This document shows, one piece after another, positions 39,414-61,072 of a stretch of 64,000 bases of DNA. Where the stretch lies: assembly GCA_964400605.1 (NCBI GenBank), contig CAYNUH010000002.1, forward strand, positions 58,866-122,865. The letters run 5' to 3'. The position numbers were made by a program, and so were the translations under genes. The first letter of the stretch is position 1; each line of letters begins with the position of its first letter. This stretch comes from an uncultured Acidobacteriota bacterium. Lineage in GTDB: Bacteria > Acidobacteriota > Polarisedimenticolia > JACPZX01. The notes below the pieces were generated by a model, which was not told the DNA's origin, searched no databases, and saw only the letters and a list, made by a program, of their open reading frames with translations.

Positions 39414-39645
39414 CTTGAGCCTTTCCTCCGGAGGCCGGATTCCACGTCCGCCGCGGCCGCTCGGGGGCGATTTAGCGCCACGCCGTTGTGCTGCGGGCAA
39501 CGCCCTGCCGATGGGCAACGGGCATGCCACACCGGCCGCCGCAGGATGCAGTGCAAGTGCTTGTGAGCAGGCGGGATCGCCGGCCCATCAGGCCACGGCA
39601 GGAGGTCCCGCGGGTGCGTATTTTAGCGCACCAGCGGGAAACCTC

Positions 39646-40146
39646 TCACTTCCAGTGCTTGATTTTCTCTTTGGCGGAGGCGAAGTCGAAGCCCTTGAAG
39701 TTCGGGCTCTTGGAGTTGTGGCAGGTGGTGCAGGCTTTCTCGTCCGGGATGATCAGGCCGAGTCCCACCGACTTCGCGTGGGCGGCCGCGCGGTCGGCCT
39801 GGTACTTTGCCTTGTTCATGACGTCCACGGCCTTGTAGAGGCTTCCGGGGCCGTGGCAGGACTCGCACTGGACGCCGTTGAGGTCGGCGCCCGCGGCCGC
39901 GGGCCTGCCGTACCCGGTGATGTGGCAGCCGGCGCACTCCGCTTTCGTGCGCTCCTCGGGCTTGAGGACCTCGATGGCCTTCGCGTGGGCGGTCGCCATC
40001 CAGACCTTGTGCTCGTTCAGGTGGCACGCCTTGCACTTGGCCGCGCCGACGTACTGCGCCTCCGCGGCGGCCGAGAGGCCCGCCGCCGCGGCGATCATCA
40101 CCACAGCCGCGATCCCGATCAGGAAGCCCTTGCCGCTTCTCTGCAT
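39646..40146 (-). CDS. tetraheme c-type cytochrome (periplasmic)
   Basis: Signal peptide; four CXXCH motifs (CKACH, CAGCH, CESCH, CTTCH) in 166 aa; an AAGGAGG ribosome-binding site. The long tracked ORF upstream is read-through. Confidence 0.75.
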   Translation of the reverse strand: MQRSGKGFLIGIAAVVMIAAAAGLSAAAEAQYVGAAKCKACHLNEHKVWMATAHAKAIEVLKPEERTKAECAGCHITGYGRPAAAGADLNGVQCESCHGPGSLYKAVDVMNKAKYQADRAAAHAKSVGLGLIIPDEKACTTCHNSKSPNFKGFDFASAKEKIKHWK

Positions 40147-41472
40147 GGAGCCGCCTCCTTGAATGGAACGTCCGCCGTCGCCGGGAAGGTGAGGGTCACC
40201 GTGGTCCCGGCTCCGGGGGAAGTCGACAGATGGATCCGTCCGTTGTGGGCCTCCACGATCGTGCGGACGATCGGAAGGCCGAGGCCCGTGCCTCTGGCCT
40301 TGGTCGTGAAGAAGGGCTCGAAGGCCCGCGCCTCGGTCGCTCCCGCCATGCCGCAGCCGGTGTCGCTGAACCGGATCCGCACGAAGGCCCCGTTTCGCTC
40401 CGTGGTCACCGTCAGTGTACCTCCCGGCGCCATCGCCTGGTAGGCGTTGGTGACCAGGTTCTGGAACGCCTGCTCGGCCCGGGCCGGGTCCACCTCGGCG
40501 TGGAGCGGCCCAGGCGCGAACTCGCGGGCGACGCGCTTCCCGGCCGCCTCGTTCGTGGAGGCGGCGGACGCGAGCACCCGGTCCAGGACGCGGTGGATGT
40601 CTGTGGGCTGGGGGAGGAGCCGCCCGGGGCGCGCGTAGGCGAGAAGGTCGTTCACGATGTGGGCGATGCGCGCCACCTGAAGCTCCACCTCCTCGCCGAC
40701 GCCCTCGGGAAGCTCCTTCCAAAGATCACTACCCTTCAGCACCTCGACGGTGCCCGCGATCCCCGCGAGGGCGTTGCGAACCTCATGGGCGATGCTGGCG
40801 GCCGTCTCGCCGATGGCGGCAAGCTTCTCGGCCTGGATGAGCCTCGCCTCCATCTCCTTCTCCGCCGTGATGTCGCTGACGATGGCGGAGGAACCGATCA
40901 TGCTGCCTTCCGCGTCGCGCAGGATCGATCGGGTGATCCGAACGTTGATGGTGGTCCCGTCCTTGCAGACCCGCCTTGTCTCGAAGTTCCGCACGAAGCC
41001 GTCCGTCCTAACCGCCTCGAGGATGCGCTCCGGCTCGCCGGCCTCGATGAGGTCGCGCGGGAAGAGGACGCGCACGTTCCGGCCCACGATCTCCGGGGCC
41101 GTGTAGCCGTAGATCTCCTCTGCGGAGCGGTTCCACGACCGGATGATGTCGTCGCTGTCGATGCTGACGATCGCCTCGCCGGCGTCCTGCACGATGTTCT
41201 CGAAGAAGAGCCGCATCCGGCGGGCCTCGTGCGACTGGCGGCGCAGCTCCTCCTCGTAGCGTCGCCGGTAGCGCATCAGGAGGTAGGCGGTCAGGGCCGA
41301 CATGATGATCGCTGTCGAGACGCCGCGCGTCAGGTAGAAGAAGGGCATGCTGGCCGGGTCCACGAAGGTGGCGAGATACGCCTCCAGCATCTCCCAGGTG
41401 GCGAAGATCACGAGCATCACCCCAGCGAGGATCCCGATCATTCTCCTGATGCTGAGGGCCACGACGCCTCCG
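40119..41472 (-). CDS. PAS-domain sensor histidine kinase
   Basis: Two N-terminal TM helices, PAS (IVSIDSDDIIRSWNRSAEEIYGY), H-box HEVRNAL and HATPase. Start is either the GTG at 41472 or the ATG at 41451; the upstream 350 aa of the tracked ORF is noise. Confidence 0.75.
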
Positions 41473-41855
41473 TTTCCCGCCGTACTCGGTTCCCGCCAAG
41501 TCCGGCGGGATTCCCGTCCACGACGCCGCCAATCATCGCAACCGACATGCCAGCGGATCCGTGGGGCGCTGAACCGTCTAAGACCTTTGGATTCAGGGCG
41601 TCGGGCCCGCCGGCCGGCCCCGGCCGGAGGGACATGTGGGTCAGCCGACGCACCGGTGCGCGGGAGGACTGCCGGGCGGCTCGCACAGGGGGCCCCCACT
41701 ATCCTCCTGCGTCCCCAGCGGCGTCCGCGGCTGCGGGCCGCAGGGAGTCGCCGCTTGGTCGCGTGGGGGCCGCCGCGTCGTGGAGCCCGGGGCTCCGGTT
41801 CGGGAGGTGGGCGGCCGGAGTTCCCGGCAGAGCCGGGATGGGTTACCATGGGTCC

Positions 41856-42347
41856 ATGCCATTGTTCGCCGACGCTCTCCGTGTGATCAACGGGATGAAG
41901 GGCGACGGCGTCGTTGAAGACTATGCCATCGCCGGGGCGATGGCGCTGGTGTTCTGGACCGAGCCGATCCCGACCTTCGACCTCGACTTTCTCGTGTTCC
42001 TGCCCGGTGACGAGGCGACCATCGTCAGCCTCGAACCGATCTACCGCTGGACGGCGGAGCGCGGCTACAGGACGCAGGCCGAGCACGTGATGATCGAGGG
42101 AGTGCCGCTGCGGTTCCTGCCGGCCCACAACGCCCTCGCTGATGAGGCGATTGAGCGGGCCGCGACGCTCGAGTACGAGGGAGTGCCCGTACGTGTCGTC
42201 AGGCCTGAGTACCTCGCGGCGCTCTATCTGGAGCCAGGCGCACGCACACTGAAGCGGCGGGAGCGGGCCGCCGCGCTCAGGGAATCGCCCACGATCGATC
42301 TGGCCGTGCTCGAGGGCCTCCTCAAGCGGTTCGATCTGGAGCCCTGA
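41856..42347 (+). CDS. hypothetical protein, possibly a minimal nucleotidyltransferase-fold protein
   Basis: 163 aa with a GDG...DLDFL pattern reminiscent of the Pol-beta NTase fold. Orphan gene between two operons. Confidence 0.35.
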   Translation: MPLFADALRVINGMKGDGVVEDYAIAGAMALVFWTEPIPTFDLDFLVFLPGDEATIVSLEPIYRWTAERGYRTQAEHVMIEGVPLRFLPAHNALADEAIERAATLEYEGVPVRVVRPEYLAALYLEPGARTLKRRERAAALRESPTIDLAVLEGLLKRFDLEP

Positions 42348-42350
42348 GAC

Positions 42351-42563
42351 ATGGCCGGGGCGCCTCGCCGGAGACCGCGGCCGACCCCGGAGTTGACGGC
42401 CGCACTGCGGGCCGGCAAGGCCGAACTCCACCGACAGCGTGCCCACATGCGGCTCCGCGAGAAGGTTCGGATCGTTCTCGAGCTGCAGCGCATCTGCCTG
42501 CCGCTCGTCGAGCACCAGCGTCGGCTCGCGCCCTGGGAACGGCCCTGGCCGGTCGTGCCGTAA
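42351..42563 (+). CDS. small hypothetical protein (70 aa), possible partner of the preceding gene
   Basis: Starts 4 nt after the stop of the previous gene. Arg-rich helical sequence. Weak call. Confidence 0.2.
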   Translation: MAGAPRRRPRPTPELTAALRAGKAELHRQRAHMRLREKVRIVLELQRICLPLVEHQRRLAPWERPWPVVP

Positions 42564-42846
42564 CGATCTCGAGCGACGCGGGTACGCGGCAGCGATAACG
42601 ATTTCGCGCCTCGCCGCCGCCGTGGAGTCCAGCTTCGAGGGTTCCTCCGCATCGATTCCGGTCCCACCACCGTAAGCCGAAGCGCGAACTGCTCGGTCTT
42701 CCTCGTCAGTCGGTGCAGCGAGGCCTTCCGCTGGGGACGTTCTGGTTGAGGCCGACGCCGGAAGCCCCTCCTCTAGGGTGGGCCCTTCGCCGCCGGGAGG
42801 CGCACGCGGTCACAGCTTGAAGCTCACGGCCGGCTCGGCAGAGCCA

Positions 42847-44928
42847 TCAGGGACCTTGGCTGTAGCCGGGGATGGCGGCCATCTCGGCGTCGATCTGGGC
42901 CAGTTGAGCGAGCGCGGAGGCCCGCGCGTCCCTCTCGTTCAGCGAGAGCGGCCAGGGGAGGCCGGTGAGCTGGGCCTCGATCTCCTCCAGGTCCCTTCTG
43001 GCCGTCTCGTACTGATAGCGGGCGGTCTTCGGGTCCTGGGCGGCCGCGCTTCGCGCCAGCGTCCGGTACGTGCGGGCCCTCGTGCGCAGGAGGACGAGTC
43101 GGTAGGAGAGAGGCAGGTCGCTCAGGCGATCGCGCGCCGCGTCGAGGAAGTGGATCGCCGCCACGTGATCCGCCTCCCGCCGCACGAGAACGCCCTGATC
43201 GCGGTCGAATCGGCGGAACGGGTAGCTGAGGTTCACGCCCAGCGCGAGGTTGGCGTACGGGGCGTACATGCTGCCCGGGTGCTGCCGGGCGATCTCCTCG
43301 AGGTTTCTCTTCCCCCGCTCGAGGTGGTCACCCCCCAGGAAGCGCAGAAACCTCCGCGACTCGGGCTCGGTGATGAGGGCGTAGGCGTCGGGGGCGTAAG
43401 CGTCGGGGGTGAAAGCGGGCGCGAACGGCATCGGGGCGATCGAAACCTCGACCGGGGCGGATCTCGCCGCCACGGAGTAGGGTGCCGGCGGGACAGCCGC
43501 CAGGCCAGGGGGCGCGCTCCGCGCCGTCATGCCGGTCAGGCTCGCCATCACGTGGATGCCGGGGGCGGCGGCTGCACCTCCGTCGTGCAAGGCCACGCCC
43601 TGGGGAGCGGCGGGTACGTCGAGATCGATGCCGGTGACGCTCACGCTTGCCGTGAGCGGCGTGCTCTTGAGGCCCGCCTCGTCGGCGAGGAAGGGGATGG
43701 AGTCGGACTGGAGGTCGTTGGGATCCGGCGAGGAGCCGGTCCAGAGCTTCAGGTAACCGAGCGCCGGATCGAGGCTGCGCTCGGAGAGGTACTCGACGAT
43801 CCCCTCCCCATTCGGGTCCACGTTGACGACGACGCGCACGCGGACCGGCTCGCCGGGGATGTAAGAATCTTTCTCGGGGACGACGACGAGGTTCAGCCAC
43901 GACGGCGCCGATCCAGCCTCCGCCAGCGCCCGAGTGGAGCAGAGGTCGCCGCAGGCGCTCGCCGTCGTGCCATGCATCTTTCTCTCGTGCGCGTTCGGAT
44001 CCACGTCGCACCAGTCGGAGCCGTGCCAGCCTGGACGCACCTCGACGCGGGAGTGGCTGCCGACATGCTCGAGGGCCCAGGCTCCGAAGGCCCACGTCGT
44101 CCCGGGGCAGTCGTCCGCCCTGCAGACGCTGTCGCAGGCGATCTCGGCGTGGTGAAGGTTGAGCACGTGTCCCAGTTCGTGGATGGCCGTCGCGAGCCGG
44201 TCCCCGTCCGATGTGTGGGCGCAGTAGTGCACGACAAAGTCCTCGCGGCAGCGGTTCCCGCACTCGATTGCCGCCAGGCCGCCCAGATGGCCGAGGGGGC
44301 TCGACTCCAGCCAGATCTCGCCCTTGTAGTTGCAGCTCCCGCCGGACTTGTCCCAGCAGCAGGGAAGCGCCAGTCCGTGCGCGTACCAGAAGCCGTACAG
44401 GGACCAGAAAGACGTCCCGCCCTTCATGTCCTGTGTCGAGTCGACGAGCCCAGCGATCTCGCCACGTTCGAAGCAGATCTCCTCGTAAGCGTTGGGAAGG
44501 TTGGTGTCTCTGAGGACGTCGCAGGCCGGCCCCCCCAGCCTCAGCGAGTCCAGCGCCAGCGTGTTCGGATCCGGGACTGAGGGCCGACCCCGCGGAACGG
44601 TCAACCGTGTGTAGGAGAACGGCTGCTCGTCGATCATCACGAGGATCCCCGCCTTGCTGAACGCCCCGCCGAGGGTGGCGCCGCCGGCGGAAAGGACGGG
44701 CTCGTAGTCTCTCAGCTCGTCAAACTCCACCAGGAGCAGGGGGAGCTGGATGGACGGAGACCAACTCAGCGTGTCGCACTCCACGTGGAGCCAGCCGCCC
44801 AGCAGCAGCGGCAGGAGAGCCGCCGCCAACCGGCCGAGCACGCCTCCGCGCGGCCGCACCCTCCCGGCGGATCCCGCCTCCGCGCCGAGGCCGCTACGGC
44901 TTCTGGGGAGGGTTGTGAATCGGGCCAT
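42847..44928 (-). CDS. secreted zinc-dependent metalloprotease (HExxH zincin) with a Cys-rich domain
   Basis: Signal-peptide-like N-terminus; AIHELGHVLNLHH; many Cys; last gene of the ECF-STK-CHAT operon. Confidence 0.6.
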   Translation of the reverse strand: MARFTTLPRSRSGLGAEAGSAGRVRPRGGVLGRLAAALLPLLLGGWLHVECDTLSWSPSIQLPLLLVEFDELRDYEPVLSAGGATLGGAFSKAGILVMIDEQPFSYTRLTVPRGRPSVPDPNTLALDSLRLGGPACDVLRDTNLPNAYEEICFERGEIAGLVDSTQDMKGGTSFWSLYGFWYAHGLALPCCWDKSGGSCNYKGEIWLESSPLGHLGGLAAIECGNRCREDFVVHYCAHTSDGDRLATAIHELGHVLNLHHAEIACDSVCRADDCPGTTWAFGAWALEHVGSHSRVEVRPGWHGSDWCDVDPNAHERKMHGTTASACGDLCSTRALAEAGSAPSWLNLVVVPEKDSYIPGEPVRVRVVVNVDPNGEGIVEYLSERSLDPALGYLKLWTGSSPDPNDLQSDSIPFLADEAGLKSTPLTASVSVTGIDLDVPAAPQGVALHDGGAAAAPGIHVMASLTGMTARSAPPGLAAVPPAPYSVAARSAPVEVSIAPMPFAPAFTPDAYAPDAYALITEPESRRFLRFLGGDHLERGKRNLEEIARQHPGSMYAPYANLALGVNLSYPFRRFDRDQGVLVRREADHVAAIHFLDAARDRLSDLPLSYRLVLLRTRARTYRTLARSAAAQDPKTARYQYETARRDLEEIEAQLTGLPWPLSLNERDARASALAQLAQIDAEMAAIPGYSQGP
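43381..43410 (+). repeat. 15-bp perfect in-frame tandem duplication
   Basis: gcgtaggcgtcgggg / gcgtaagcgtcgggg encodes PDAYA-PDAYA inside the metalloprotease. Confidence 0.5.
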
Positions 44929-45664
44929 GGTTCGGGCCTCCCTTCACGTGGACCTCAATGCTGGTGACGTCAGTCCAGGATCCGTCGGGAGTCCTACCCT
45001 TGAAGACCTCGACGACGTGGTTGGCCTCCTTGGCGAGGGTGAAGGTGTATTTGCGGTGCAGCCCCTGCGGTCCGGACTTCACGGAGAGGCCGTTATCCCG
45101 GTTCTCCCACAGGGTGATCCCGCCGCGGAAAGGCTCGAAGTACTTGTGGAGCGACTTGGGCTTGCCGGTGTTGGTGTCGATCGGGAACTGCCGAGGAAGG
45201 TCCGCGAGGCTCATCGGAGGAAAGGATGGGAACGCCTGGCTACCCCTGGCCACGATGTTGATCCAGATCGCGTAATTGGGATCGCTGACGCTGAACTCCG
45301 CCTCCGAGATCGTCTTGACGAGGGAGCCGTCGTTCTTGTGCAGCGTGACGGAGTCGAGCTCGCTCGCCGGCTGCCCCCCCGTGTACGGGATGGCCTTGCC
45401 GAGCTGGAAGACGACCCCGTGCCAGAGCCTCTCTCTTTCCACCCAATTCCCGCCCTGGTACGTGAAGGTGTTGTTCTCGGCCATCCAGACAGCCGTGTCG
45501 TCGTCGTGGATGACAAGGGTCACTTCAGGCCCCCCCGCGACGATCGGAATGCCGACGAGTTGCAACTGGGGGGGCCTGGAGTAGAAGAAGTAGGAAAGAG
45601 CGAGCAGGGCCAGGATGGCCACGGCGAGAGATAGCGCCATCACTTGCGTCACATTCCGTTCCAT
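44894..45664 (-). CDS. membrane-anchored (signal-anchor) periplasmic hypothetical protein
   Basis: A GGAGGA ribosome-binding site; MERNVTQVMALSLAVAILALLAL TM; beta-rich soluble domain with no recognised family. Confidence 0.5.
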   Translation of the reverse strand: MERNVTQVMALSLAVAILALLALSYFFYSRPPQLQLVGIPIVAGGPEVTLVIHDDDTAVWMAENNTFTYQGGNWVERERLWHGVVFQLGKAIPYTGGQPASELDSVTLHKNDGSLVKTISEAEFSVSDPNYAIWINIVARGSQAFPSFPPMSLADLPRQFPIDTNTGKPKSLHKYFEPFRGGITLWENRDNGLSVKSGPQGLHRKYTFTLAKEANHVVEVFKGRTPDGSWTDVTSIEVHVKGGPNHGPIHNPPQKP

Positions 45665-45715
45665 TTTGGTCCTCCAAGCGGCGGCCCGAGGCCGCCGCAT
45701 CCGTCCGTCACGCGC

Positions 45716-48700
45716 TCAACGCCACTCTCCGGCCGCGACGAAGCCGCCCCAGGTGAAGGGGTCGGTTTCCCTCCCGGCCTCTCTCCGCCGCCGCAGGATC
45801 TCACGGCTCGCTTCGCGCACCGCCTCGGCCGTGCCGAGCCGGTCGCGGAGGCGCTTCTCGTACAGGATCCTCATCCACTCCCTCGCGGCGCGGTCCTCCA
45901 CCGGCCAGAGGCTCATGATCACCGTCCGGGCTCCCGCGATCTGAAAGGCGCGCCGCAATCCGAGCACCCCCTCGCCCGGACGGATCTCGCCGCCCCCAGT
46001 GTCGCAGCCCGACAGGACCGCCCACTCGACGCCCGCGAGGTTCAGCGTGGCGATCTCCGCCGCCGTCAGGATCCCGTCTTCCTCCTCAGGCGCCGCGGCG
46101 TCGCGCCGGTTGGCGCCCGCGAACGCGAGGCCAGCGAGGAGCAGGGGGTTTTCGTCCGTGGGAAGCGTCTGCGGCTCCGCGCTCACCGCGGTCGCGAGGC
46201 TTCCAATGCCGCGGCGGCCGGTCTCCTCCGTGGCGGCAGGACAGCCGCCGTCGAGGAAGAAGCCGTGTGTCGCGAGATGGAGGATCCGCCGTCCGGGCGC
46301 CGCCTCCTTGAATGCTGCTTCGGTCGCGCGGGGGCCGGCGAGGTACAGGGCGTTGCCAGCTTGTCCTTGTGGGGCCGCGCTCCTCCAGAGCGCCATGACT
46401 TCCTCCGCCTCCGCCCCGGAGGCTGGAAGGTCCCCGAACCGAAGCGTCCGGAGATCGCCGCAGGCGCGGCGCTCGCCCCTGAAGGAGCCCCCCGACCGAT
46501 CGGAACCAGGAGGGCTCCCCGGCGGCCGGACGGCCGCGAGTGCCGCCGCGGGCTCCTCGGGCCGCTCGTCGAAGGCCGGCCCGCCGAGCGCGAGGAGCCC
46601 CGCGCCGAGCGGCGCCGGGTCGCCGGAGGCGGCCACGTCCCGCTCGGCCGACAGGTAGTGGAAGAGGGGCCCCGACTCGATCAGGTAGGCTCCGTGGCCA
46701 TCGGGGAGCGCCGCGAAGCTCACCCTGTGGAGCGCGCCGTCCGGCACGATGAAGACGGCGGCGGTCCCGCTGACCGAACGGGCGACGGGGTCCCAGATCG
46801 CGCGGCGCAGGGCGTCGCCCGCGGTCCCGCCAGCGTCGAGGATGGGACCCGCGGGGGCCTCGCGAGATCCGCGGTGCTCCAGGATCTCGGCGCGCCAGCG
46901 CGCGACGGCGTGGTGGACCGCGCCAGCGGGGCCGAGATCGACGAAGCGGGGTTCGCCTCCTTCAGAAGAATGCACGAAGGCGGCGTACCTGCTCGCTGCC
47001 TTCCCCGGGTCCCGGAGGTCGTCGTAGAGCGTGTAGGCCACGAGCGCCGTCCCGGCTGGGAGCTTTCGCGTGATCTCCTCCAGACCGATCCCCTTCCGGC
47101 CGCCGGAGGGGGCGGGTGAGGCGCCGGACTCGGCCAGGAGACGCTCCAGCCGCTCCTTTTCCGCCCGCAGCGCCTCGAGGCGGGAGCGGTACGCGGCCAG
47201 GTTCTCGGCTTCCGATCCGCGCAGCGACTCCTGCGCCAGCCGTCGGGTGACCTGGATCAGATCCGAAGACAGCAGAGCGGCCTCCCCGATCGCCGTTTCC
47301 CCGGCGGAGCGCATGCGGGCGGCCATCTCGTCCAGGACGAGCGCGCGTGATCGGACGACGGCGTCCCACACTCTCCCACCCGCTCCCGGGATCCCTCCCG
47401 TCGCCGCTACCGTGAGGGCGAGATCGAGGGCCGAGGACCTGACCTCCGCATAGCGAAGCGCCTGCCTCTCGGGGAGCGTCCGCACCGTCAGGATCAGGTG
47501 TTCCCGACCGATCGCCTCGGCCAGGAGAGCCTGATCGAGCGCCGCCGAGGATTGCCCGCCCGCGAAGAGGACGAGGGCGAGATCTCTTCGGATCTCGGCC
47601 ACCTTCGGGTGCTGCGGCCCGAGGCTCCTCTCGGCGTTCCGCAGCGCTCGTTCGCCGGCCGCGCGCGCGCCCGCGAGGTCGCCCTCCTGGAGGTCCAGCC
47701 GCGCCGTCCCGCGGAGGGCCTCGGCCACGAGAGGATGCTCGCCGCCGACGGAGCCTCCAAGGATCCCGAGGGCGCGGCTGTAAAGCGCGCGGGCTTCTTC
47801 GCGATCGCCCGCCGTCGCGCGGAGGCCCGCGAGCCCCACGAGGCTTCGGGCGATCTCCGGGTGGGTGGCGCCCAGGTGCTTCTCCCGGATCGCGAGCGCC
47901 GCCTCGCAGAGGTAGCGCGCCCGGAGAGGATCCCCCATCTCGGCGAGGAGCAGTCCCAGACGCTCCTGGCTCCACGCGAGGTCGATGTGGCCGGGCCCCA
48001 GGGTGTGGCGCCGGATCTCGAGGGCGCTCTCGTACATCTCTCGCGCGCCCGACAGATCCCCAGTCCAATGGAGCAGCTCCGCGAGATCGTCCATGGTCTT
48101 CGCAACGCCGCGATCCTCGGGGCCGAGGGCCTTCCTCTGGATCTCTAGCGCGCGCTCGTAGAGGGAGCGCGCCGCGGCGTAGTCCCCTTCGCTGACGTGG
48201 TTATAGGCGAGATTGCTGAGGCTCCACGCGACGTGGAGGTGGTCGCCGCCAAGGCGCTTCTCGCGGATCGCCAGTGCACGCTCGTACAGATTCCGCGCGC
48301 GGGAGTACGCGCCCTCGGCCTCATGAAGCTCCGAGAGCCCGGTGAGCGTCCAGGCCACGTCGAGGCTTTCGGGGCCGAGGATCTCCTCCTGAATCGAGAG
48401 GGCTTCCTCGTACCGGGCCATCGCCCCTTTGTAATCGCCGCTTCCGTGGAGGGCAATTGCGAGGTTGTTCAGAGTCATCGCGACGTCGGCGTGCCGGCGG
48501 CCGTACGCCGCAGTGAGGATCCGCAGGGCCGCCTCGTAATCGCGGATCGCGGTGCGGTAGTCGCCGGAGCCGAACGACAGCCCGGCGAGATCGATGAGCG
48601 TCCGGGCGACGTCCGGGTCGTCCGGGCCGAGGAGCTTCCTCCTTAGCGCGAGGACACGGCGGTAGAGGCGGCCGGCCTCCGGGGTGTCGCCGGCCGCCTC

Positions 48701-49207
48701 GAGGACGCAGGCCAGGTTCCGCATGGAGGTCGCGACCTCGAGGTGCTCGGGGCCGAAGATCTCTTCCTTGATCCTCAGCGCGCGCTCGGCCGTCTCGCGG
48801 GCCTCGGGGCTTGACGCCCGGCCGCTCCTCCAGAAGACCTCGGCGAGGAGATCCATCGCCGCGGCGCTCTCGAGCGACCGTGGCCCGAAATCCGCGGTCA
48901 AGCGTGACAGCGCCTGCCGCGCGAGCGAATGCGCCTCGTCGAACCGGGCTCCCTTGAGGAGCGCCCGGGCCTCGTCCAGCGCCTGCCGCGCCGCGGAGTC
49001 GAGGGCGGGCGCTCCGCGCCCAGCCTCCTCCGCGGGGAGAGGATCCGCACGGGCTTCCCCTCCAGGGACCAGAAAGGAGAGGACGAGGCCCACGGCCAGT
49101 CGTCCGCACAGTCTGAGCGCCGCGGCTCCGAGCGCGGCGGATCCCCGGGCGGCGCGATCGTCCCCCCGTGCCTTCATTGCCTCGGATTCTCCAAGTCGAT
49201 CTGCCAC
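45716..49207 (-). CDS. secreted TPR-repeat protein with a C-terminal CHAT (caspase-like) protease domain
   Basis: Signal peptide; at least 10 TPR units (the AxxLxNLAxxxxxxGDY pattern); C-terminal CHAT with HLATHG (His) and LSGCDTG (Cys) dyad. The ATG at 49177 forms an ATGA overlap with the kinase stop; an alternative start is the GTG at 49207. Confidence 0.75.
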   Translation of the reverse strand: MADRLGESEAMKARGDDRAARGSAALGAAALRLCGRLAVGLVLSFLVPGGEARADPLPAEEAGRGAPALDSAARQALDEARALLKGARFDEAHSLARQALSRLTADFGPRSLESAAAMDLLAEVFWRSGRASSPEARETAERALRIKEEIFGPEHLEVATSMRNLACVLEAAGDTPEAGRLYRRVLALRRKLLGPDDPDVARTLIDLAGLSFGSGDYRTAIRDYEAALRILTAAYGRRHADVAMTLNNLAIALHGSGDYKGAMARYEEALSIQEEILGPESLDVAWTLTGLSELHEAEGAYSRARNLYERALAIREKRLGGDHLHVAWSLSNLAYNHVSEGDYAAARSLYERALEIQRKALGPEDRGVAKTMDDLAELLHWTGDLSGAREMYESALEIRRHTLGPGHIDLAWSQERLGLLLAEMGDPLRARYLCEAALAIREKHLGATHPEIARSLVGLAGLRATAGDREEARALYSRALGILGGSVGGEHPLVAEALRGTARLDLQEGDLAGARAAGERALRNAERSLGPQHPKVAEIRRDLALVLFAGGQSSAALDQALLAEAIGREHLILTVRTLPERQALRYAEVRSSALDLALTVAATGGIPGAGGRVWDAVVRSRALVLDEMAARMRSAGETAIGEAALLSSDLIQVTRRLAQESLRGSEAENLAAYRSRLEALRAEKERLERLLAESGASPAPSGGRKGIGLEEITRKLPAGTALVAYTLYDDLRDPGKAASRYAAFVHSSEGGEPRFVDLGPAGAVHHAVARWRAEILEHRGSREAPAGPILDAGGTAGDALRRAIWDPVARSVSGTAAVFIVPDGALHRVSFAALPDGHGAYLIESGPLFHYLSAERDVAASGDPAPLGAGLLALGGPAFDERPEEPAAALAAVRPPGSPPGSDRSGGSFRGERRACGDLRTLRFGDLPASGAEAEEVMALWRSAAPQGQAGNALYLAGPRATEAAFKEAAPGRRILHLATHGFFLDGGCPAATEETGRRGIGSLATAVSAEPQTLPTDENPLLLAGLAFAGANRRDAAAPEEEDGILTAAEIATLNLAGVEWAVLSGCDTGGGEIRPGEGVLGLRRAFQIAGARTVIMSLWPVEDRAAREWMRILYEKRLRDRLGTAEAVREASREILRRRREAGRETDPFTWGGFVAAGEWR

Positions 49208-50934
49208 ACCCAGATCCCGACGCCGGGGCTCCGGCCGCTGGAAATCCCGGCTATGACCGAAGAGAGGGTCCGGCGCCCGCCGGGTTCCGTCGGGGCGCCG
49301 GCGTCCGCCACGTGTCCGATCCCCCTCAGCGTCTCCTCCACCCGGCGGCCATCCATCTCGAAAGGCTCGCCGATCTCAGCTTTGGGAGTGCGTTCGATCT
49401 CCTGCGCCAGCGCCGGCAGAGGCTCCCGCGACGCGATCACGAGAACCGACTCCCGGCCTCCGGCGCTGCTGACGAGCCAGTGCTTGGGCCGCTCGTGAAG
49501 CGAGCCGGGGAGGCGGTGCCGCTGCCCGCCTGGCAGCGGGTTCCCCAGATCCAACTCCGGGAGCGGGAACAGCACGAAGGCGGAGCCCGCCTCGTCCTCG
49601 TCGAAGACGTAGACGTGCACGTCGTGCGAGGCCAGGATCTCGAGGAAGAGGTGATCGCCGGGCTCGACCGCGGCGCCGGGCCCGAGCCGCTCCTCGAGGG
49701 CCTCTCCGGCCCGGTAGAGGGAGGCCTCCACTTTGAGGTCTGAGGGAAGGACGAGCGGTCCGAGCAGGGCCCAGAGCCCGGCTGCGAAGAGGAGGGCGGA
49801 GCCCGCCAGCGCTGCGAGCGCTCCGGGGCGTCTCCACCAGGAAGGGGCCGGGAGCGGCGCCTCCGCGGGGGGGTGGGCGCCGACCGCGGCGCACAGATCG
49901 CGCTCCACTTCTCCGGCGGTCGCGTAGCGCCGGGAGGGATCGGGGTCGAGCGCCCGATCCACGATCGTGACGAAGGCCGCGGGGAGATCGGGACGGTGGC
50001 TCCGCAGCGGGGCCGACTCGCGGCCCCGGTGCCTTTCCTCCAGCTCGGCGAAGGATTTGGCCTCGACGGGAAAGCGGGCGGAGACGAGCCGGTAGAGGAC
50101 GACGCCCAGGGAGTAGATGTCGGACGCCGTGCCGGCGTCCTCGTTCCTGAACAGCTCCGGCGCCATGAAGAGAGGCGTGCCCGAGACCGTGTCGCCGCTC
50201 CGGGCCGCATCGAGAGGATCCCTCTCGGCGGAGGCGCTGAAGTCCATCAGAACGATGCGGCCGCCCGCCTCCCGCATGATGTTGGAGGTCTTGACGTCCC
50301 TGTGGATCAGTCCGGCGGCGTGGACCGCCGCGAGGGCGCGGCACAGATCGATGCCGATCATCGTGGCCTCGTCGGCGCCGAGGATCCCCTGCACTTTGAG
50401 GATCTCCTCGAGGGTCCTCCCCTCGATCAGCTCCGTCCAGAGGCCCACGCGTCCCGCGTGGCGGTCCGCGCCGAACACCCTGAGCACGCCCGGATGCCGG
50501 ACCCGGGCGAGCCGGCGGGCCTCGCTGAGGAACCGCTCCAGGCCCTTCTCGTCCTGCCGCCGATCCTCCCTCAGCAGCTTCAGCGCCACGTCGATCTGCA
50601 GCGACGGATCGTGAGCCCTGTACACGTCTCCCCAGGCCCCGCCTCCGAGCCGCGCCACGATCCGGAGCGGCCCCCAGGATACGGGCGGAGGCTGCGCCTC
50701 CAGGGCCGGCGACGGGGACCGATCCACCGTCGTCATCTCGCTGAGTCTTGCCATTGGCCCGATGGGAGCGGGGGGAAGCGATCCGTGCGCGGCCTGGATC
50801 GAGGCGATGAGCCGGAGCTGCTCGATCCGCCCGCGCACCTCGCTGCCCGCAGCCGCCTCGACCTCCCAGTCCACATCCCCTCCGTCGGCGACGGCCGCAG
50901 CGATCCTGATCAGCTTTCCGTCCTCAACGCTCAT
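49174..50934 (-). CDS. membrane Ser/Thr protein kinase (N-terminal cytoplasmic region, Hanks kinase, TM, C-terminal periplasmic domain)
   Basis: GxGxxGxV-like GGGAWGDVY, VALK, HRDVKTSN, DFS (DFG), APE. One TM helix; 11-nt overlap with the ECF sigma gene. Confidence 0.8.
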   Translation of the reverse strand: MSVEDGKLIRIAAAVADGGDVDWEVEAAAGSEVRGRIEQLRLIASIQAAHGSLPPAPIGPMARLSEMTTVDRSPSPALEAQPPPVSWGPLRIVARLGGGAWGDVYRAHDPSLQIDVALKLLREDRRQDEKGLERFLSEARRLARVRHPGVLRVFGADRHAGRVGLWTELIEGRTLEEILKVQGILGADEATMIGIDLCRALAAVHAAGLIHRDVKTSNIMREAGGRIVLMDFSASAERDPLDAARSGDTVSGTPLFMAPELFRNEDAGTASDIYSLGVVLYRLVSARFPVEAKSFAELEERHRGRESAPLRSHRPDLPAAFVTIVDRALDPDPSRRYATAGEVERDLCAAVGAHPPAEAPLPAPSWWRRPGALAALAGSALLFAAGLWALLGPLVLPSDLKVEASLYRAGEALEERLGPGAAVEPGDHLFLEILASHDVHVYVFDEDEAGSAFVLFPLPELDLGNPLPGGQRHRLPGSLHERPKHWLVSSAGGRESVLVIASREPLPALAQEIERTPKAEIGEPFEMDGRRVEETLRGIGHVADAGAPTEPGGRRTLSSVIAGISSGRSPGVGIWVWQIDLENPRQ

Positions 50935-51526
50935 CCATCACCTCGGCCAGCCGCACCAGCGCGCGGGCGACGATCATCCTTGCCGCGTTGGCGGAGGGGC
51001 ATCCGAGCGCCTCGGCGACCTCGCGGTGTGTGAATCCCATCTCGACCCTCATGATGACGGCCTCCTGGTGTTCCTCCGGGAGGGTGGAGAGGGCCCTTTC
51101 GTATCGGTCCAGGGCCTCTTTCCCGATCGCCTGCTCCAGAGGTGAGGGGCCGCCTTCCGGCATCTCCTCATCGAGCGATTTCCGCTCGGGCCTCCGATCC
51201 GACCGCCGGATCTCGTCCCGGATCTGGTTCAGCACGATCTGCCGCAGGTAGGCCAGGAAAGCGCCTTCGTGCCGCGGATCGAACCCCTTCATGCTGTTCA
51301 ACGCTCGGAGGAGGCCGACCTGCACGAGGTCGTCGGTGTCCAGGAGATCGCGCGCCCGGAGCGGCAACCGGCCGCGCGCCCAGCGCTGCAGAGGAGGAAG
51401 GAAGCGTCGGATCAGGCGCTCGCGTGCGGCGGCGTCACCGCCGCGGATGCGGGAGAGAAGGGAGGCGGTCGATTCGAGGCCGGCGGCCTGCTCGGCTGCG
51501 CCGGGATCCGGCCTGGAGTTCGCCAC
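50924..51526 (-). CDS. ECF-type RNA polymerase sigma factor (sigma-70 family regions 2 and 4)
   Basis: Region 2 (DLVQVGLLRA) and region 4 HTH (HREVAEALGCPSANAARMIVARAL); 200 aa. Confidence 0.8.
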   Translation of the reverse strand: MANSRPDPGAAEQAAGLESTASLLSRIRGGDAAARERLIRRFLPPLQRWARGRLPLRARDLLDTDDLVQVGLLRALNSMKGFDPRHEGAFLAYLRQIVLNQIRDEIRRSDRRPERKSLDEEMPEGGPSPLEQAIGKEALDRYERALSTLPEEHQEAVIMRVEMGFTHREVAEALGCPSANAARMIVARALVRLAEVMDER

Positions 51527-51879
51527 GGCACCCCCCGTGCCGGGGGCGGTCCCGAGGCCGCATCCGGGGCCGCCGGACGCGCGCCGGAACCCGCCGCCTT
51601 CCGCTCCCGCCGCGGGCCCACGGGAGGAGCGACTCGGGCGTTGCGGCGGCCGTCACCGCTCCAGGGCTCGACGGGGCGGCCGCTCGCGAGATGGGTCCGA
51701 TTCCAGGATGAATCCTGCGAGATTAACGAGCAGCCATCCTATCGTGGACGCCCGCCGGGTGTCAACGAACAGGCCATCCCGTCGCGAGGATCGGCCAGGA
51801 CGTCCCCTTGGGGCCCGCGAGGCGGGAGCCCGAGCCACTCCCCGAGTTCACGCTGCTCCGCCGCGCGCTGAAAGGTTGT

Positions 51880-52261
51880 GTAGGCGGCTCCGCGATCCGC
51901 GGCGGCCCGGACCGGGCTCGGTACCGCGCTGGCGGAGGAGGGCCTGCTCGACGAGGCGACCCGCTCGTTCCGCGAAGCGGTCGATCTCGATCCGGTCGAC
52001 GCCGACGCCCTGAGCCAGCTCGGGCAGGCGCTGCTCCTGCGCGGCCGGGGACGGGAGGCCGTGGATGTCCTGCGCCGGAGCCTGGCGGCCCAGCACGATC
52101 ACCGGCGAGCGCGCATCGGCCTGGCCGCGGCCCTGGTGAGCTTGGGTGAGCATCAGGAAGCGGGGCGTCTGTACCGCGCGGTGCTCGCCGAGGATCCAGA
52201 GGATCCGTGGGCCAACCGGGGCCTGGCCGAGCTCGAGAGGCGCGCAGGCCGCGGGCCGTGA
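51880..52261 (+). pseudogene. TPR-repeat gene fragment with no usable start (remnant)
   Basis: The frame is open from the TAG at about 51877 and encodes 2-3 TPR units (LGTALAEEGLLDEA...). The only in-frame start is the GTG at 52061, and there is no ribosome-binding site. Confidence 0.35.
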
Positions 52262-52320
52262 GTTCGAAGAGGATCGCCCGAGGGTTACCGGATCGCCTAT
52301 GGGCCCGACCGAGGGCGATG

Positions 52321-53580
52321 TCAGGCGGGCACGGGGAGGGTGATCACGAGGCGGGCCCCGCCGCCGGGGGCGCGCCCGAGGTGGAGCGCGCCCCCGTGCG
52401 ACTCGACGATCTTGCGCGAGATCGCGAGCCCGAGGCCGGTGCCTCCCGCGCGCGTGGTGAAGAAGGGCCGGAAGATCTCCTCCGCGATCTCCTGGGGGAC
52501 GCCCGGGCCGGTGTCCTCCACGGACATCTCCAGCCCGCCGCCTTCGAGCCGCCGGGCGGCGATGCGGATCTCCCCCGACCTGTTCATGGCCTGCGTGGCG
52601 TTGAGCACCAAGTTCACGATCACCTGCTGGATCTGGCCGGGGTCCATCGGAAAGGCGGGCAGATCTCTGGGCCCCCTGACTACAATCCTGATGTTTTTGA
52701 AGCGCGGCTCGTCGGAGATCAGCCTCACCGTCGTCCGGATCAGCTTGAGCGGATCCACCAGCTCCCGCGCCGGGAGCGAGGGGCGCGCGTAGATCAGCAG
52801 GTCGTTGACCTTCCCATCGAGGCGGCGGACCTCGTTGAGGATCTCGCCGAGGATTTCCTTGCGTGGCTCGTCGGGACGCATCTCCTGGCCGATCACCTGG
52901 ATCGCGCTGCTGATGGCGGTGAGGGGGTTGCGGATCTCATGAGCGATGACGGCGGCCACCTCGCCGATGGCCGCGAGACGGCGGAAGGTCGAGTTCTGCT
53001 CCGACTGGAGCATCTTCCTCGCCCAGTCCTCGCGGTACGTCTCCAGCATGAGGGCCAGCGAGAGGTCGAGGATCCTTACGAAGGCGCGCTGCACGGCCAC
53101 ACTGTGCGGCGTCCTCCGCGGGTAGGCGCGAAAGAGGACCCGGTTCAGGTGCTCGCGGAAGACCTGCATCCCGGCCACCATGTACGACTGATCGAGCCCC
53201 ACCTGGACGTGCCGGGTCCCGATCGCCGACTGCAGCCCGGCGTACTCGGCGTCGTGCGGTCCCTTCAGCGTGCGATCGAGCCATACCCTCAAGGTCGACT
53301 TCAACCGGGCGACCTGCTGGTCCCCGCCCGTGATGACCCCGCGGGCGAGGGGGTCCGCTTCGATCCTCGCGTAGAAGTCGTCGAGGATCCCGTCGAGGTG
53401 CGGCTGCACCTTGGGATGGAAGGAGGCCAGGAGGGAGGAATCCCTCTTCGTGAAGCCGACATAGTCCGCGAGCCGGGAGAAGAGAGAGGCGGGGTCGGAC
53501 CCGCCTGCGGCCGCGGCCGGCGCCGCGGCGCGGCGGGCGCGGGCGGGTGGGGCTGCGGAGTGGGAACGCGCGGGCGTCAT
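52321..53580 (-). CDS. globin-coupled sensor histidine kinase (protoglobin domain plus HisKA plus HATPase)
   Basis: The N-terminal approximately 150 aa match protoglobin/GCS blocks: ILDDFYARI, LKSTLRVWLDRT, YAGLQSAIGTRHV (proximal His). These are followed by H-box HEIRNPL and the G1/G2 boxes. Confidence 0.65.
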   Translation of the reverse strand: MTPARSHSAAPPARARRAAAPAAAAGGSDPASLFSRLADYVGFTKRDSSLLASFHPKVQPHLDGILDDFYARIEADPLARGVITGGDQQVARLKSTLRVWLDRTLKGPHDAEYAGLQSAIGTRHVQVGLDQSYMVAGMQVFREHLNRVLFRAYPRRTPHSVAVQRAFVRILDLSLALMLETYREDWARKMLQSEQNSTFRRLAAIGEVAAVIAHEIRNPLTAISSAIQVIGQEMRPDEPRKEILGEILNEVRRLDGKVNDLLIYARPSLPARELVDPLKLIRTTVRLISDEPRFKNIRIVVRGPRDLPAFPMDPGQIQQVIVNLVLNATQAMNRSGEIRIAARRLEGGGLEMSVEDTGPGVPQEIAEEIFRPFFTTRAGGTGLGLAISRKIVESHGGALHLGRAPGGGARLVITLPVPA

Positions 53581-53632
53581 CGTGCGGCCGCTGGCCGGCC
53601 GCAACGGAGTATATCCGACGCCCGTCCGGGCG

Positions 53633-54477
53633 TCAGCGCGGGGCGCGCCAGCAGCCGGTGACCGTGGCGGTGCCCGGCGCGGCCGCCTCGACCGTCACGC
53701 CGAGATCCTCGCGTCCGGCGGGCGCCTCCACGTCGCCCCCGCCCCGCGCCAGGAGAGCCTCGTACTCCAGGGGGTGCTCCTCCTTCATCTCGTCGAGCGA
53801 GATCTTGCCGTCGAGCCAGATCCGGCTCATCGGGAAGGCTCCGGGTCTGAAGTGCACCTGGTACATGTGCCAGATGATGATGGCCAGGAACGCGAGGATC
53901 GCTTCGTAGGAGTGCACGACGCGCACCAGGTCGAAGACGTAGCGCGGGAAGAGGGCCATGGTGGCCTCCTCGAACCAGAGCATCAGGCCGGTGCCAGCCA
54001 TCAGCAGACTTCCCCAGACCACAGCCAGATACTCGAACTTCTCGATGAAGGTGTAGCGCCCGTAGCGGGGGTGCGTCTCGGGAAGCCACTGGCTCCAGCG
54101 CCGGCGCAGGAGCCGCCCGCGCGCGGTGCGCCTCAGCCATCGCACGGCGCCGCTCTGATGGGCCAGCGTGCCGACGGCGTCTCGCGCGTCCTGCATCCTC
54201 GGAAGCAGACCCTTGAAGTCTCGGTTGCCGCGCCCGGAGAGCAAGATGTAAAGGAGGTGGGCGAAGCACAGGATGATCAGCCCGACGCCCGCGATCCGGT
54301 GCATGAGCCCGCGGATCCAGAAGAGGTCGCCGCGCGACAGGACGCTCTTCAGCATCGGCGAGGGATCGAAGATCATGGGAAGGCCCGTCAGCACGAGGAG
54401 CGTGAAGGTGGCGATCAGGACGCCGTGCTGCACCCTCTGCGAGAGAGGCATCCGCATGATCTCGCGCCGATCGCTCA
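53633..54477 (-). CDS. b-type cytochrome membrane subunit (FdnI/HydC/PhsC-like, 4-5 TM)
   Basis: 281 aa. TM helices contain conserved His (HGVL, HRIAG, HLLY, HSYE, HMYQ). The N-terminal half of the tracked ORF is the cyt c gene read out of frame. The start may be off by 1 nt. Confidence 0.6.
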
Positions 54478-55482
54478 TCCGCTTCTCCCGCCGGGCCCGG
54501 AGCGCTCCCCGGCGCGGCGCCGCAGCCGGTGGGTCAGGTCCGCCACCATGAAGACGGCGAAGACAGCCATCATCGACGCGATCATCCCCTGGTAGAACCT
54601 CCGAGCCACGTACGTGAAGGGGTTGTCCTCCCACCGGTCCTCCAGGTGGACCTTCCCGATGGCGAAGTTTCTGCCGGCCTGCAGGTGGCAGTGGCCGCAC
54701 GTGGCCGGGAGATTGGCGGAGTTGATGGTGGACCTTTCGTCGCGCGAAGGGAGAATCCTGTGCACGCCGTGGCACGAGGCGCAATTGGCCACAGTCCGGT
54801 CTCCGTACTCCCCGGCGAGGCCGTGGAAGCTCCCCAGGAATGTCTGCAGGCGCGCCGGCGGCAGGCTGTACTTGCGCACGATCTCCTCGTCGTCGTGGCA
54901 TCGGGTGCAGGTGGGAGCCAGGGCCGAGGCGTTCACGGGTGAGTTGGGGTCGCCCTTGGGAACGATCCTGTGCCCCCCGTGGCAGGTCAGGCAGGTCGGC
55001 ACATCGGGGTTCCCCTTCTTGAGTTCGGTCCCGTGGATCCCCTCCATGTATTCGTGGACGATCTCCTCGTGGCAGCTCCCGCACATGGCGGACAGGTGCG
55101 CCCCCACCTTCGCCGGCCTCGATCCACCTCCCGCCTCGTCGATCGCGTGCGTTCCGTGGCAGTCGGCGCAGGCGGGGGGGTGGCCGGGGGCGACGGAAGC
55201 GTCGTGGCAGGCGGTGCAGTCCACGGCCGCGGGTTGCGGGTGGGGGAATTCCTGCACGTCTGCGAGATCGGTGTGGCAGGACGCACACTCCAGCCCCGCA
55301 TTCCCGTGGACCGAGGATCGGAGCAGCGCGCCCAGGTCGTGGCAGTCGGCGCAGTTCGGGGTTTCCTCCGCGGTCACCGGGGCCGCCGCCGCTCCGGGCA
55401 GGATGAACCCTCCGGCCGCCAGCAAGGCGAGCGGGAGCAACCGGCGACACTCCCGGCGGGCGGACGGCCGCTTGCAGGACAT
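54475..55482 (-). CDS. multiheme c-type cytochrome (9 CXXCH) with a C-terminal TM helix
   Basis: Signal peptide; nine motifs (2x CADCH, 2x CASCH, then CTACH, CGSCH, CLTCH, CTRCH, CGHCH); a GGAGG ribosome-binding site 7 nt before ATG 55482. Confidence 0.75.
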   Translation of the reverse strand: MSCKRPSARRECRRLLPLALLAAGGFILPGAAAAPVTAEETPNCADCHDLGALLRSSVHGNAGLECASCHTDLADVQEFPHPQPAAVDCTACHDASVAPGHPPACADCHGTHAIDEAGGGSRPAKVGAHLSAMCGSCHEEIVHEYMEGIHGTELKKGNPDVPTCLTCHGGHRIVPKGDPNSPVNASALAPTCTRCHDDEEIVRKYSLPPARLQTFLGSFHGLAGEYGDRTVANCASCHGVHRILPSRDERSTINSANLPATCGHCHLQAGRNFAIGKVHLEDRWEDNPFTYVARRFYQGMIASMMAVFAVFMVADLTHRLRRRAGERSGPGGRSG

Positions 55483-55603
55483 CTCCACGCCTCCGTAGAG
55501 ACTTTCAGCAACCCGCGTACCAACCGATGGCGTCGCGTGACCGCCGCTTGGCCGCCGTTCGGCGGCCGAGCGCCCGCGGTGGCACAGGTGCTGCTACAGA
55601 AAG

Positions 55604-55869
55604 GGGTGAAAGAGATGGAGGAGCCGCAAACGAAGCCCCCAGAGGACTCGATCATGTCCGACCAGAAGAAGATCCGGGAGAAGATCAAGGAGATGCGCGA
55701 GCTTGTGAGGGTCGGCAAGGAGCGCATAGCCACGCACTCGCCGGTCTGGGCCGTCTACCTGACGGGCGAGACGCTGCGCTCGTTGAGCCAGGTGCTCGAC
55801 GCTCTCGATCGGGAGCTGGACGCGCCGGTCGAGAAGGAATGGAACGCGCGCGCCCGGCGGACGGGCTGA
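55604..55869 (+). CDS. small hypothetical protein (about 88 aa)
   Basis: An AAAGGGGTGAAAGAG ribosome-binding-like region precedes the ATG. Lys/Glu-rich N-terminus. No recognised family. Confidence 0.3.
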
Positions 55870-55975
55870 ACCCGCAGCCCGCGAAGCCAGCCGCAGACGA
55901 AGGCCGTGGAGGCAGCACCATGCACACCATCCGACTGGCAAGCGCCGAGGACCCGCTCGCGCTGACGCTGACTCT

Positions 55976-56920: not shown

Positions 56921-56935
56921 GTCAAGGAGCCCCCC

Positions 56936-57328: not shown

Positions 57329-57367
57329 CTCCGCGGAGGGGCCGGGGCTCCCGCCCCGGTCCCTCGA

Positions 57368-59346: not shown

Positions 59347-59620
59347 CCCATCCTCATCGTGCAGCCGGATGGATGGTCAAGGTGCGTGCCATCGCGCGAA
59401 CCGCGGAGGCGGCCCTTCCCGGCCCGCAAGTGGCTCACGGGGAGAGGATAACCGAAGAGGGACCCGGCGTGGTCCTGCCCTCCGGGGAGGCGCGCGGTGC
59501 GGGATATCCTCCGCGATGCGCGAAACGACGCAGGCCGGGCTCTTCTCACAGGCTCCCGCCGGAGCGTGGCACCTGGTCTGCTATCCTGCCGCGGCCCCGC
59601 GACGGCCGCCGGAGCACACC

Positions 59621-61057: not shown

Positions 61058-61072
61058 CCGCCCGACTCGGGT

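Follow-up and report, generated by a model that had tools for sequence, protein, structure and literature searches.

A five-gene operon on the minus strand was analysed in a stretch of 64,000 nucleotides (nt), hereafter the window, of contig CAYNUH010000002.1 from an uncultured Acidobacteriota bacterium. In the direction of transcription, its genes encode a sigma factor of the extracytoplasmic function (ECF) class, a Hanks Ser/Thr kinase with a single transmembrane (TM) helix, an exported tetratricopeptide repeat (TPR) protein ending in a CHAT domain, a small protein without known family (P4), and a predicted metzincin-type zinc protease (P5). Two units were distinguished by comparison with independent loci: a CHAT-P4-P5 cassette, and the ECF factor together with the TM kinase, which carries a DUF4384 domain. 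We favour, with a probability of roughly 0.5, a reading in which both units work jointly at the cell envelope, P4 and P5 being dedicated clients of the TPR-CHAT protein and the ECF-kinase pair linking periplasmic proteolysis to transcription.

Conservation of the CHAT-P4-P5 cassette

The order CHAT-P4-P5 was kept in seven of seven independent P5 loci (L001, L002, L006/L007, L008, L009, L010 and L011), and the spacing between P4 and P5 was tight in all loci, ranging from an overlap to a gap of about 115 nt. Among the loci fetched (n = 14) and the window, P4 occurred only between a CHAT gene on its 5' side and a P5 gene on its 3' side, and neither the P4 nor the P5 profile had any other match. 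CHAT homologues were also found in other settings, as solitary genes, as tandem arrays or next to unrelated genes (L003, L005, L012 and L013 among these contexts), revealing a one-sided dependence: P4 and P5 depend on a neighbouring CHAT gene, whereas CHAT is independent of them. Because P4 and P5 were never seen without CHAT, while CHAT was often seen without them, both are read as its probable dedicated clients, which would be either substrates or bound partners. The unassigned genes lying 3' of other CHAT homologues (L003, L004, L005, L009 and L013) were considered as possible relatives of P4 or P5 and rejected by the profiles.

The DNA 5' of the CHAT gene was readable in three loci, namely the window, L006 and L002. 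In the window the ECF and kinase genes are co-directional with the cassette and overlapping, while in L006, an independent metagenome contig, they adjoin the cassette in inverted orientation and are divergently transcribed; the persistence of this adjacency despite the inversion speaks for a joint function. The L006 proteins were 49% (ECF), 44% (kinase), 41% (CHAT), 35% (P4) and 32% (P5) identical to those of the window, with the LDTDDLVQ motif of the ECF factor and the A..V.DG..VDW motif of the kinase both kept. Since L002 has the cassette alone, the signalling pair is regarded as optional. The five genes had been proposed as a linked set in an earlier reading made from the sequence only; the neighbourhoods uphold this for CHAT-P4-P5 in all seven loci and for the ECF-kinase pair in L006, but not for that pair in L002.

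A kinase with a TM helix and DUF4384 was also detected 134 nt 3' of a homologous CHAT gene in an unrelated locus (L004), so that the link between kinase and CHAT recurs. Contig L014 (JGI sample 3300010391), which matches window positions 49633-61526, was rejected as a second instance of the ECF-kinase pair, as its 99.78% identity across 11.9 kb marks it as DNA of the same organism. The same sample also gave two divergent CHAT-P4-P5 cassettes (L001 and L010); several cassette carriers therefore occur in one habitat.

Gene organization and promoter

The locus consists of five open reading frames (ORFs) at 42847-51526 (Table 1). The tight packing described in the sequence-only reading was confirmed at each junction: the ECF stop and the kinase start have 11 nt in common (50924-50934), the kinase stop and the CHAT start share an ATGA (49174-49177), and P4 overlaps P5 by 35 nt (44894-44928), with a AAGGGAGG Shine-Dalgarno sequence 5' of the P5 ATG. 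Only CHAT and P4 are separated, by 51 nt when ATG 45664 is taken as the P4 start; the public record uses this codon, and a GGAGG Shine-Dalgarno sequence stands ahead of it. With these starts, the CHAT protein is 1153 amino acids (aa) long instead of the 1160 aa first given, and P4 256 aa instead of 250. Overlapping starts and stops connect four of the five genes; together with one promoter-like site upstream, they argue for a common unit. All five products are annotated as proteins on one public NCBI contig of 128.8 kb, and homologues outside this locus were found for four of the five; these gene calls and homologues indicate that the ORFs are real and not chance frames of high-GC DNA (about 70% over the window).

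The site TTGACA-N18-TAGGAT, a consensus match only, was the sole promoter-like sequence within 42300-52400. Identical hexamers with the same N18 spacing precede the L006 CHAT gene (about 1583-1612, plus strand), and TTGACA-N18-GAGCAT precedes that of L002 (about 5369-5398, plus strand), again as consensus matches only. The -35 hexamer and the 18-nt spacing are thus kept ahead of the first gene of the unit, which is ECF in the window and CHAT in L006 and L002, despite protein identities of 32-49%. A common ECF-type promoter was looked for ahead of the units of these three loci and none was found, only sigma-70-like sites.

Table 1. Features of the five-gene locus, with positions in the window.
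Feature	Position	Strand	Description	Basis
ECF sigma factor	50924..51526	-	200 aa; sigma2.2 motif DTDDLVQ	Pfam and NCBIfam
Hanks Ser/Thr kinase	49174..50934	-	586 aa; N-terminal extension, kinase domain, one TM helix, outside DUF4384	Pfam and hydropathy
Kinase N-terminal extension	50665..50934	-	Residues 1-90; motif A..V.DG..VDW	Common to the ECF-linked kinase of L006
Kinase TM helix	49735..49827	-	Residues ~370-400; single hydrophobic span	Kyte-Doolittle maximum 2.08
DUF4384 (PF14326)	49420..49665	-	Residues 424-505; predicted periplasmic	44.3 bits (cutoff 27), 2e-11
TPR-CHAT caspase-like protease (predicted)	45716..49177	-	1153 aa; exported	TPR_12 x11; CHAT 1.5e-62
CHAT signal peptide	49046..49177	-	Residues 1-44; ...GGEARA/DP cleavage	Hydrophobic segment; predicted
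CHAT domain (PF12770)	45725..46819	-	Catalytic His 46265-46267, Cys 46004-46006	212 bits (cutoff 24)
P4	44894..45664	-	256 aa; N-terminal hydrophobic helix, C-terminal tail NPPQKP-COOH	Hydropathy; alignment of eight family members
P5	42847..44928	-	693 aa; signal/anchor, metzincin-like catalytic domain ~60-340, beta-sandwich ~345-495, helical C-terminal domain ~510-690	Model and alignment
P5 zinc motif HELGHVLNLHH	44149..44181	-	Residues 250-260	H250, E251, H254 and N257 invariant; H259 and H260 nearly so
Sigma-70-like promoter TTGACA-N18-TAGGAT	51736..51765	-	~210 nt 5' of the ECF start	Consensus match only

The exported TPR-CHAT protein

At least ten TPR units followed by a CHAT domain had been proposed for the third protein, in agreement with the eleven TPR_12 stretches and the CHAT match obtained here. 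The His/Cys dyad in HLATHG and SGCDTG corresponds to H971 and C1058, and its integrity, claimed before, was borne out by an alignment of 121 C-terminal halves in which both residues were 100% conserved; the protein is accordingly predicted from its residues to be a catalytically intact caspase-like protease. A second pair of cysteines (C906/C979, window 46240-46462) was kept in 99-100% of the 121 homologues and may form a disulfide, which would fit export to an oxidising compartment.

A hydrophobic N-terminal signal was present in 41 of 59 full-length CHAT homologues, and export is for this reason considered a trait of the family; in the L006 orthologue the signal ends in ...LAQGAAVA/DD. At least 1,697 homologues were recovered at E<=1e-10 among 8,000 candidates scored, with identities of 43-52%, and those named by their source were mostly labelled Acidobacteriota. 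Neither the single CHAT domain sequence nor a profile of 14 sequences had a match in the PDB at E<=1. Exported TPR-CHAT genes form tandem arrays of three to four paralogues in the metagenome contigs L003 (1-13806) and L004 (128-11159), and in L003 the array is followed by MopE-like copper-binding repeat proteins.

The ECF sigma factor and the membrane kinase

The first protein matched Sigma70_r2 (4e-14), Sigma70_r4_2 (2e-9) and Sigma70_ECF (6e-9), all above their cutoffs, as well as the NCBIfam sigma70-ECF superfamily (91 bits, with the cutoff at 42.9), and with sigma2 and sigma4 as its only domains in about 200 aa it belongs to the group IV sigma-70 factors. None of the NCBIfam ECF subfamilies was reached at cutoff. 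As stated in the sequence-only reading, a classical anti-sigma partner is missing: none of the Pfam or NCBIfam anti-sigma families was found among the five proteins.

The second protein has the architecture assigned to it before, that is, a Hanks kinase domain (Pkinase, residues 93-338, 9e-39), one hydrophobic span and an outside C-terminal domain, now recognized as DUF4384 and predicted to be periplasmic because it is C-terminal of the only TM helix. The kinase motifs LGGGAWG, VALK, HRDVK and APE are kept, while DFS replaces the DFG that is found in the L006 kinase. The L004 kinase, without an ECF partner, lacks the N-terminal extension; ECF-linked kinases thus carry an extra segment, a candidate for contact with, or docking of, the sigma factor.

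The P4 and P5 families

In a word-index search P4 retrieved itself and one other protein, and P5 only itself; that both were orphans was rejected as an artefact of sensitivity, given that HMMER and contig scans found families for the two. Single-protein scans assigned P4 to no Pfam, NCBIfam or PADLOC family, and a PDB profile search of the P4 family, together with Pfam and PADLOC scans of its eight members, was likewise negative. P4 was rejected as a relative of DUF4384 (hhalign probability 0.12). An AlphaFold model from two sequences was poor (predicted local distance difference test, pLDDT, 52.5), and P4 is probably beta-rich according to this poor model.

The members of the P4 family (n = 8, about 210-256 aa) have several motifs in common, and their C-terminus is near-invariant, HG..xNPPQ(K/R/F/Y)P-COOH (window 44894-44926; L001, L006, L008, L009 and L011). 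Such a fixed extreme C-terminus beside a TPR protein suggests, from the residues kept, a TPR-docking peptide. In the window the codons of this tail overlap the P5 start, and most P5 proteins end in Pro, like the P4 tails. At the N-terminus, the P4 proteins of the window and L008 have a hydrophobic helix, that of L002 has a lipobox-like signal and that of L010 a weak hydrophobic stretch.

P5, earlier described as a Cys-rich HExxH metalloprotease, does have 15 cysteines and, in its model, a zinc-metalloprotease fold of metzincin type. Both the HExxHxx(G/N)xxH/D motif and a metzincin fold, the latter in the predicted model, were found; the zinc motif aligned to ADAMTS HELGHVFNMPHD (E 0.019), and fold matches at lower Z comprised ADAMTS-5, ADAMTS-1, ADAMTS-13, ulilysin and CpaA. 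The family conserves HE(L)GHVLNxHH, four further histidines (H184, H288, H314 and H319) and two cysteines (C199 and C326), and several members have lipoprotein-type signals. In the modelled C-terminal half a beta-sandwich is followed by a helical TPR/MIT-like domain.

No Pfam, NCBIfam or PADLOC family was above threshold for P5, and the curated M12B, M54 and M43 peptidase families were all below it (best Reprolysin_3, E 0.065, and M43, 0.081); one distant homologue matched Reprolysin_5 at 1e-4, also below the cutoff. P5 differs from the adamalysin/ADAM (M12B) and archaemetzincin (M54) metzincins in falling below every curated threshold, in having its own beta-sandwich and helical C-terminal domain, and in the six additional invariant His and Cys residues. 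The family is small, with only about 20 clusters at E<1e-10 among 1.84 billion representatives in an exhaustive HMMER search. A looser set of proteins of about 300 aa (P0139-P0208) has only the helical C-terminal domain of P5 (residues ~480-640, window 43009-43491, motifs FLGGDHL and YANLALG) and no other recognisable domain; this helical domain would be CHAT-associated if these proteins, too, were encoded beside CHAT genes.

Comparison with known systems

In Myxococcus, a periplasmic TPR-CHAT domain of the anti-sigma factor DdvA controls the ECF factor DdvS; in DdvA a single polypeptide comprises a zinc anti-sigma domain at the N-terminus, one TM helix and the periplasmic TPR-CHAT part, with three helices missing (PMC11506125). 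This updates the sequence-only reading, in which TPR-CHAT proteins were described as cytoplasmic partners of type III-E CRISPR and bacterial gasdermin systems. The locus described here resembles DdvA/DdvS in that a predicted periplasmic TPR-CHAT protein, with a signal peptide, is genetically tied to an ECF factor (in the same operon, and adjacent in L006), in the presence of a single-pass membrane protein that would relay to the sigma factor, and in the proposed logic, from proteolysis outside to sigma activity inside. It differs in that the CHAT protein is a separate exported protein whose N-terminus is a signal peptide of 44 residues followed by the TPRs, in that the membrane relay would be a Hanks kinase with DUF4384 and not a zinc anti-sigma domain, and in the fully conserved His/Cys dyad, the extra P4 and P5 genes and the lack of a CBASS/CRISPR regulon nearby.

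ECF-kinase pairs had been called functionally uncharacterised, which does not hold: that the adjacent Hanks kinase directly phosphorylates the sigma factor has been shown for EcfP/PknT of Vibrio parahaemolyticus and EcfK/PknS of Xanthomonas citri, and in this ECF43 group a phospho-Thr stands in for the missing acidic DAED residues of sigma2.2 (PMC13147305, PMC8999054). As in ECF43, the ECF gene lies here beside that of a TM Hanks kinase without an anti-sigma gene, and the kinase domain is preceded by an extension of some 80-90 residues and accompanied by a sensor domain on the outside. In contrast, sigma2.2 reads DTDD in the window and in L006, with Asp at the phospho-position, where the ECF43 consensus is the uncharged QTTA, and the outside domain is DUF4384 instead of the TPRs of ECF43-type kinases. 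In this defining respect the ECF factor is unlike ECF43 and resembles the other kinase-linked groups, ECF59-62, 217 and 283, the mechanism of which is open (PMC7826278, PMC8999054).

Genes for CHAT, subtilase and carboxypeptidase proteins have been reported near the actinobacterial ECF54, for which regulation by proteolysis was proposed (PMC8999054). The likeness lies in an ECF factor without anti-sigma factor adjoining a CHAT-domain gene; the phylum and probably also the ECF group are different, and no kinase, P4 or P5 was reported there. In type III-E CRISPR systems the TPR-CHAT protease Csx29 cleaves Csx30, which binds the ECF factor RpoE, and some Csx30 C-terminal domains are DUF4384 (bioRxiv 10.1101/2022.08.17.504292). 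The craspase set (Csx29, Csx30, Csx31 and RpoE) thus has a TPR-CHAT protease, an ECF factor and, in some loci, DUF4384 in common with the locus of the window, which has neither Cas7-11 nor CRISPR, exports the protease, and carries DUF4384 on a kinase and not on a sigma-binding substrate. DUF4384 is besides a recurrent accessory domain fused to orthocaspases (PMC8283722, PMC7475262) and is present in one bacterial kinase family (bioRxiv 10.1101/2025.01.12.632604). That DUF4384 repeatedly accompanies caspase-like proteases, in orthocaspases and in the craspase set, counts in favour of the two-unit model, as does the DdvA/DdvS precedent.

No paper on the P4 and P5 families or on the five-gene arrangement was found in the literature searched, which was incomplete. 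The arrangement and the two unannotated families are taken as new, whereas ECF-kinase pairs and the control of an ECF sigma factor by a periplasmic TPR-CHAT part were already known.

Proposed mechanism and alternative explanations

The two-unit model builds on observed features, namely the gene order and overlaps, the domains, the catalytic residues, the export signals of CHAT and P5, the modelled P5 fold and the conserved linkage; from these we infer who cleaves whom, the direction of signalling, the regulon, the docking on TPRs, and the actions of P4 on P5 and of the kinase on the sigma factor. The TPR array would serve as a docking platform for the conserved C-terminal tails; P4, translationally coupled to P5, would be its partner, inhibitor or chaperone; the CHAT protein would cleave P4, P5 or the kinase ectodomain; and the kinase would act on the ECF factor by phosphorylating it, by retaining it with the conserved N-terminal extension, or by both. 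The whole would be equivalent to a DdvA/DdvS system split into separate proteins, with the kinase replacing the zinc anti-sigma domain. In its most specific form, clipping of P4, P5 and/or the DUF4384 ectodomain by CHAT upon a signal would alter the action of the kinase on the ECF factor, turning proteolysis outside into phosphorylation inside; this form is quite unlikely as it stands, and if true it would be a previously undescribed control of ECF factors and the first function for DUF4384 and for the exported TPR-CHAT family.

Several observations count against the two-unit model. The five-gene association was confirmed by one independent locus only (L006), and L002, from an Acidobacteriota metagenome-assembled genome, has the cassette with neither ECF nor kinase. 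Cassette-linked CHAT proteins form no separate clade: that they did was rejected on a neighbour-joining tree, which was star-like and in which their common ancestor spanned all 129 tips. The promoters ahead of the operon are housekeeping-like and not ECF-type, and the phospho-Thr mechanism of ECF43 is not needed here, because DTDD keeps the acidic residues. Four of the eight P4 proteins (L001, L006, L009 and L011) have neither signal nor anchor, with an in-frame stop just 5', and P4 may hence not be in the same compartment as CHAT and P5. The three periplasm-targeted proteins of the sequence-only reading are thereby reduced to two with export signals, CHAT and P5; the signal anchor ascribed to P4 is matched by the helix in the window copy, but its targeting is not secure, since half of the family is without an export signal. 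An N-terminal prodomain is missing from P5, in the model of which the catalytic domain starts directly after the signal/lipobox region; this disagrees with the zymogen proposed earlier. A Met-turn Met does not appear to be conserved either, M318 being present in some homologues only and the region 310-333 being modelled at pLDDT <50.

Some of these points would be accounted for if the two units were unrelated neighbours, the ECF-kinase pair serving another regulon and CHAT-P4-P5 being an independent unit placed downstream by chance: L002 without the pair, the many unrelated contexts of CHAT homologues (L003, L005, L012 and L013) and the housekeeping-like promoters all fit. We nevertheless consider chance rather unlikely, in view of the ATGA coupling of the kinase and CHAT genes, the adjacency that L006 keeps despite the inversion and protein identities of 32-49%, and the independent DUF4384 kinase beside a CHAT gene in L004. 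We give similarly little credit to an exported degradative or antagonistic set of proteases for feeding or competition, switched on by the ECF-kinase pair upon sensing of substrate or prey, in which the metzincin would have in P4 a dedicated chaperone or inhibitor, comparable to CpaB in the case of Acinetobacter CpaA. Such a set fails to explain why P5 was never found without a CHAT gene, half of the P4 family has no export signal, and the P4 model (pLDDT 52.5) is too poor for a comparison with the CpaB fold.

It is very improbable that the locus serves defence against phages or cell suicide in the manner of DdvA/DdvS, craspase (Csx29-Csx30-RpoE) or CHAT-gasdermin systems, with P4 as the effector that is cleaved. 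P4 is superficially gasdermin-like in its size, its probably beta-rich composition in the poor model, its conserved tail and its position beside CHAT, and ECF factors and TPR-CHAT proteins do co-occur in defence loci (PMC11506125; bioRxiv 10.1101/2022.08.17.504292). However, no PADLOC model, gasdermin included, matched the eight P4 proteins, and none matched CHAT, P5 or ECF; a Pfam gasdermin match was likewise absent from the eight P4 proteins, the P4 model itself being poor. The flanks have no cas or other defence genes, and the protease is exported, unlike the cytoplasmic CHAT proteases of defence systems.

If the link of the two-unit model is functional, the locus would be a second, differently wired case of periplasmic caspase-like control of an ECF sigma factor after DdvA/DdvS, and its separate proteins could be tested one at a time more easily than a fused anti-sigma factor. 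Kinase-linked ECF groups with an acidic sigma2.2, the mechanism of which is open (PMC8999054), would gain a test case, and P4, P5 and the DUF4384 ectodomain would be candidate natural substrates or partners of a large exported TPR-CHAT family. As the cassette is rare and the functional steps are inferred, its value is that of a testable lead and not of a finding.

Genomic surroundings

No cas families were detected in the flanking genes, and PADLOC gave no match for CHAT, P4, P5 or ECF and only generic kinase models for the kinase; the absence of cas and gasdermin genes noted from the sequence thus stands for the flanks and the PADLOC scans. The flanks contain a histidine kinase, an NtrC-type regulator, CcmF, a globin-coupled kinase and cytochrome b561, and no defence genes. 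Downstream of the operon (38040-42515, minus strand) lie a PAS histidine kinase and an NtrC-type sigma-54 activator, and a histidine kinase and a sigma-54 activator were also found within 8 kb of the cassette in L008. Upstream (52321-55450, minus strand) lie the globin-coupled histidine kinase and the cytochrome b561-like protein.

A separate archaemetzincin-type gene is located at 24664-25233 on the plus strand (Peptidase_M54, 2.7e-21, motif HELGHCLGLVHCEDHRC...CAVC); the spacing of its zinc motif is the same as in the HELGHVLNLHH of P5, and it was the one additional match, a weak one, of the P5 profile. Between the promoter region of the operon and the gene of the globin-coupled histidine kinase there is an open frame of about 125 codons (51884-52261, plus strand) with three TPRs (TPR_16, 6e-19) and no ATG, GTG or TTG before codon 60, which could be a gene remnant or have an unusual start. 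On the strand opposite to this frame there is an ORF of 101 aa, for which the identical contig L014 has a gene call.

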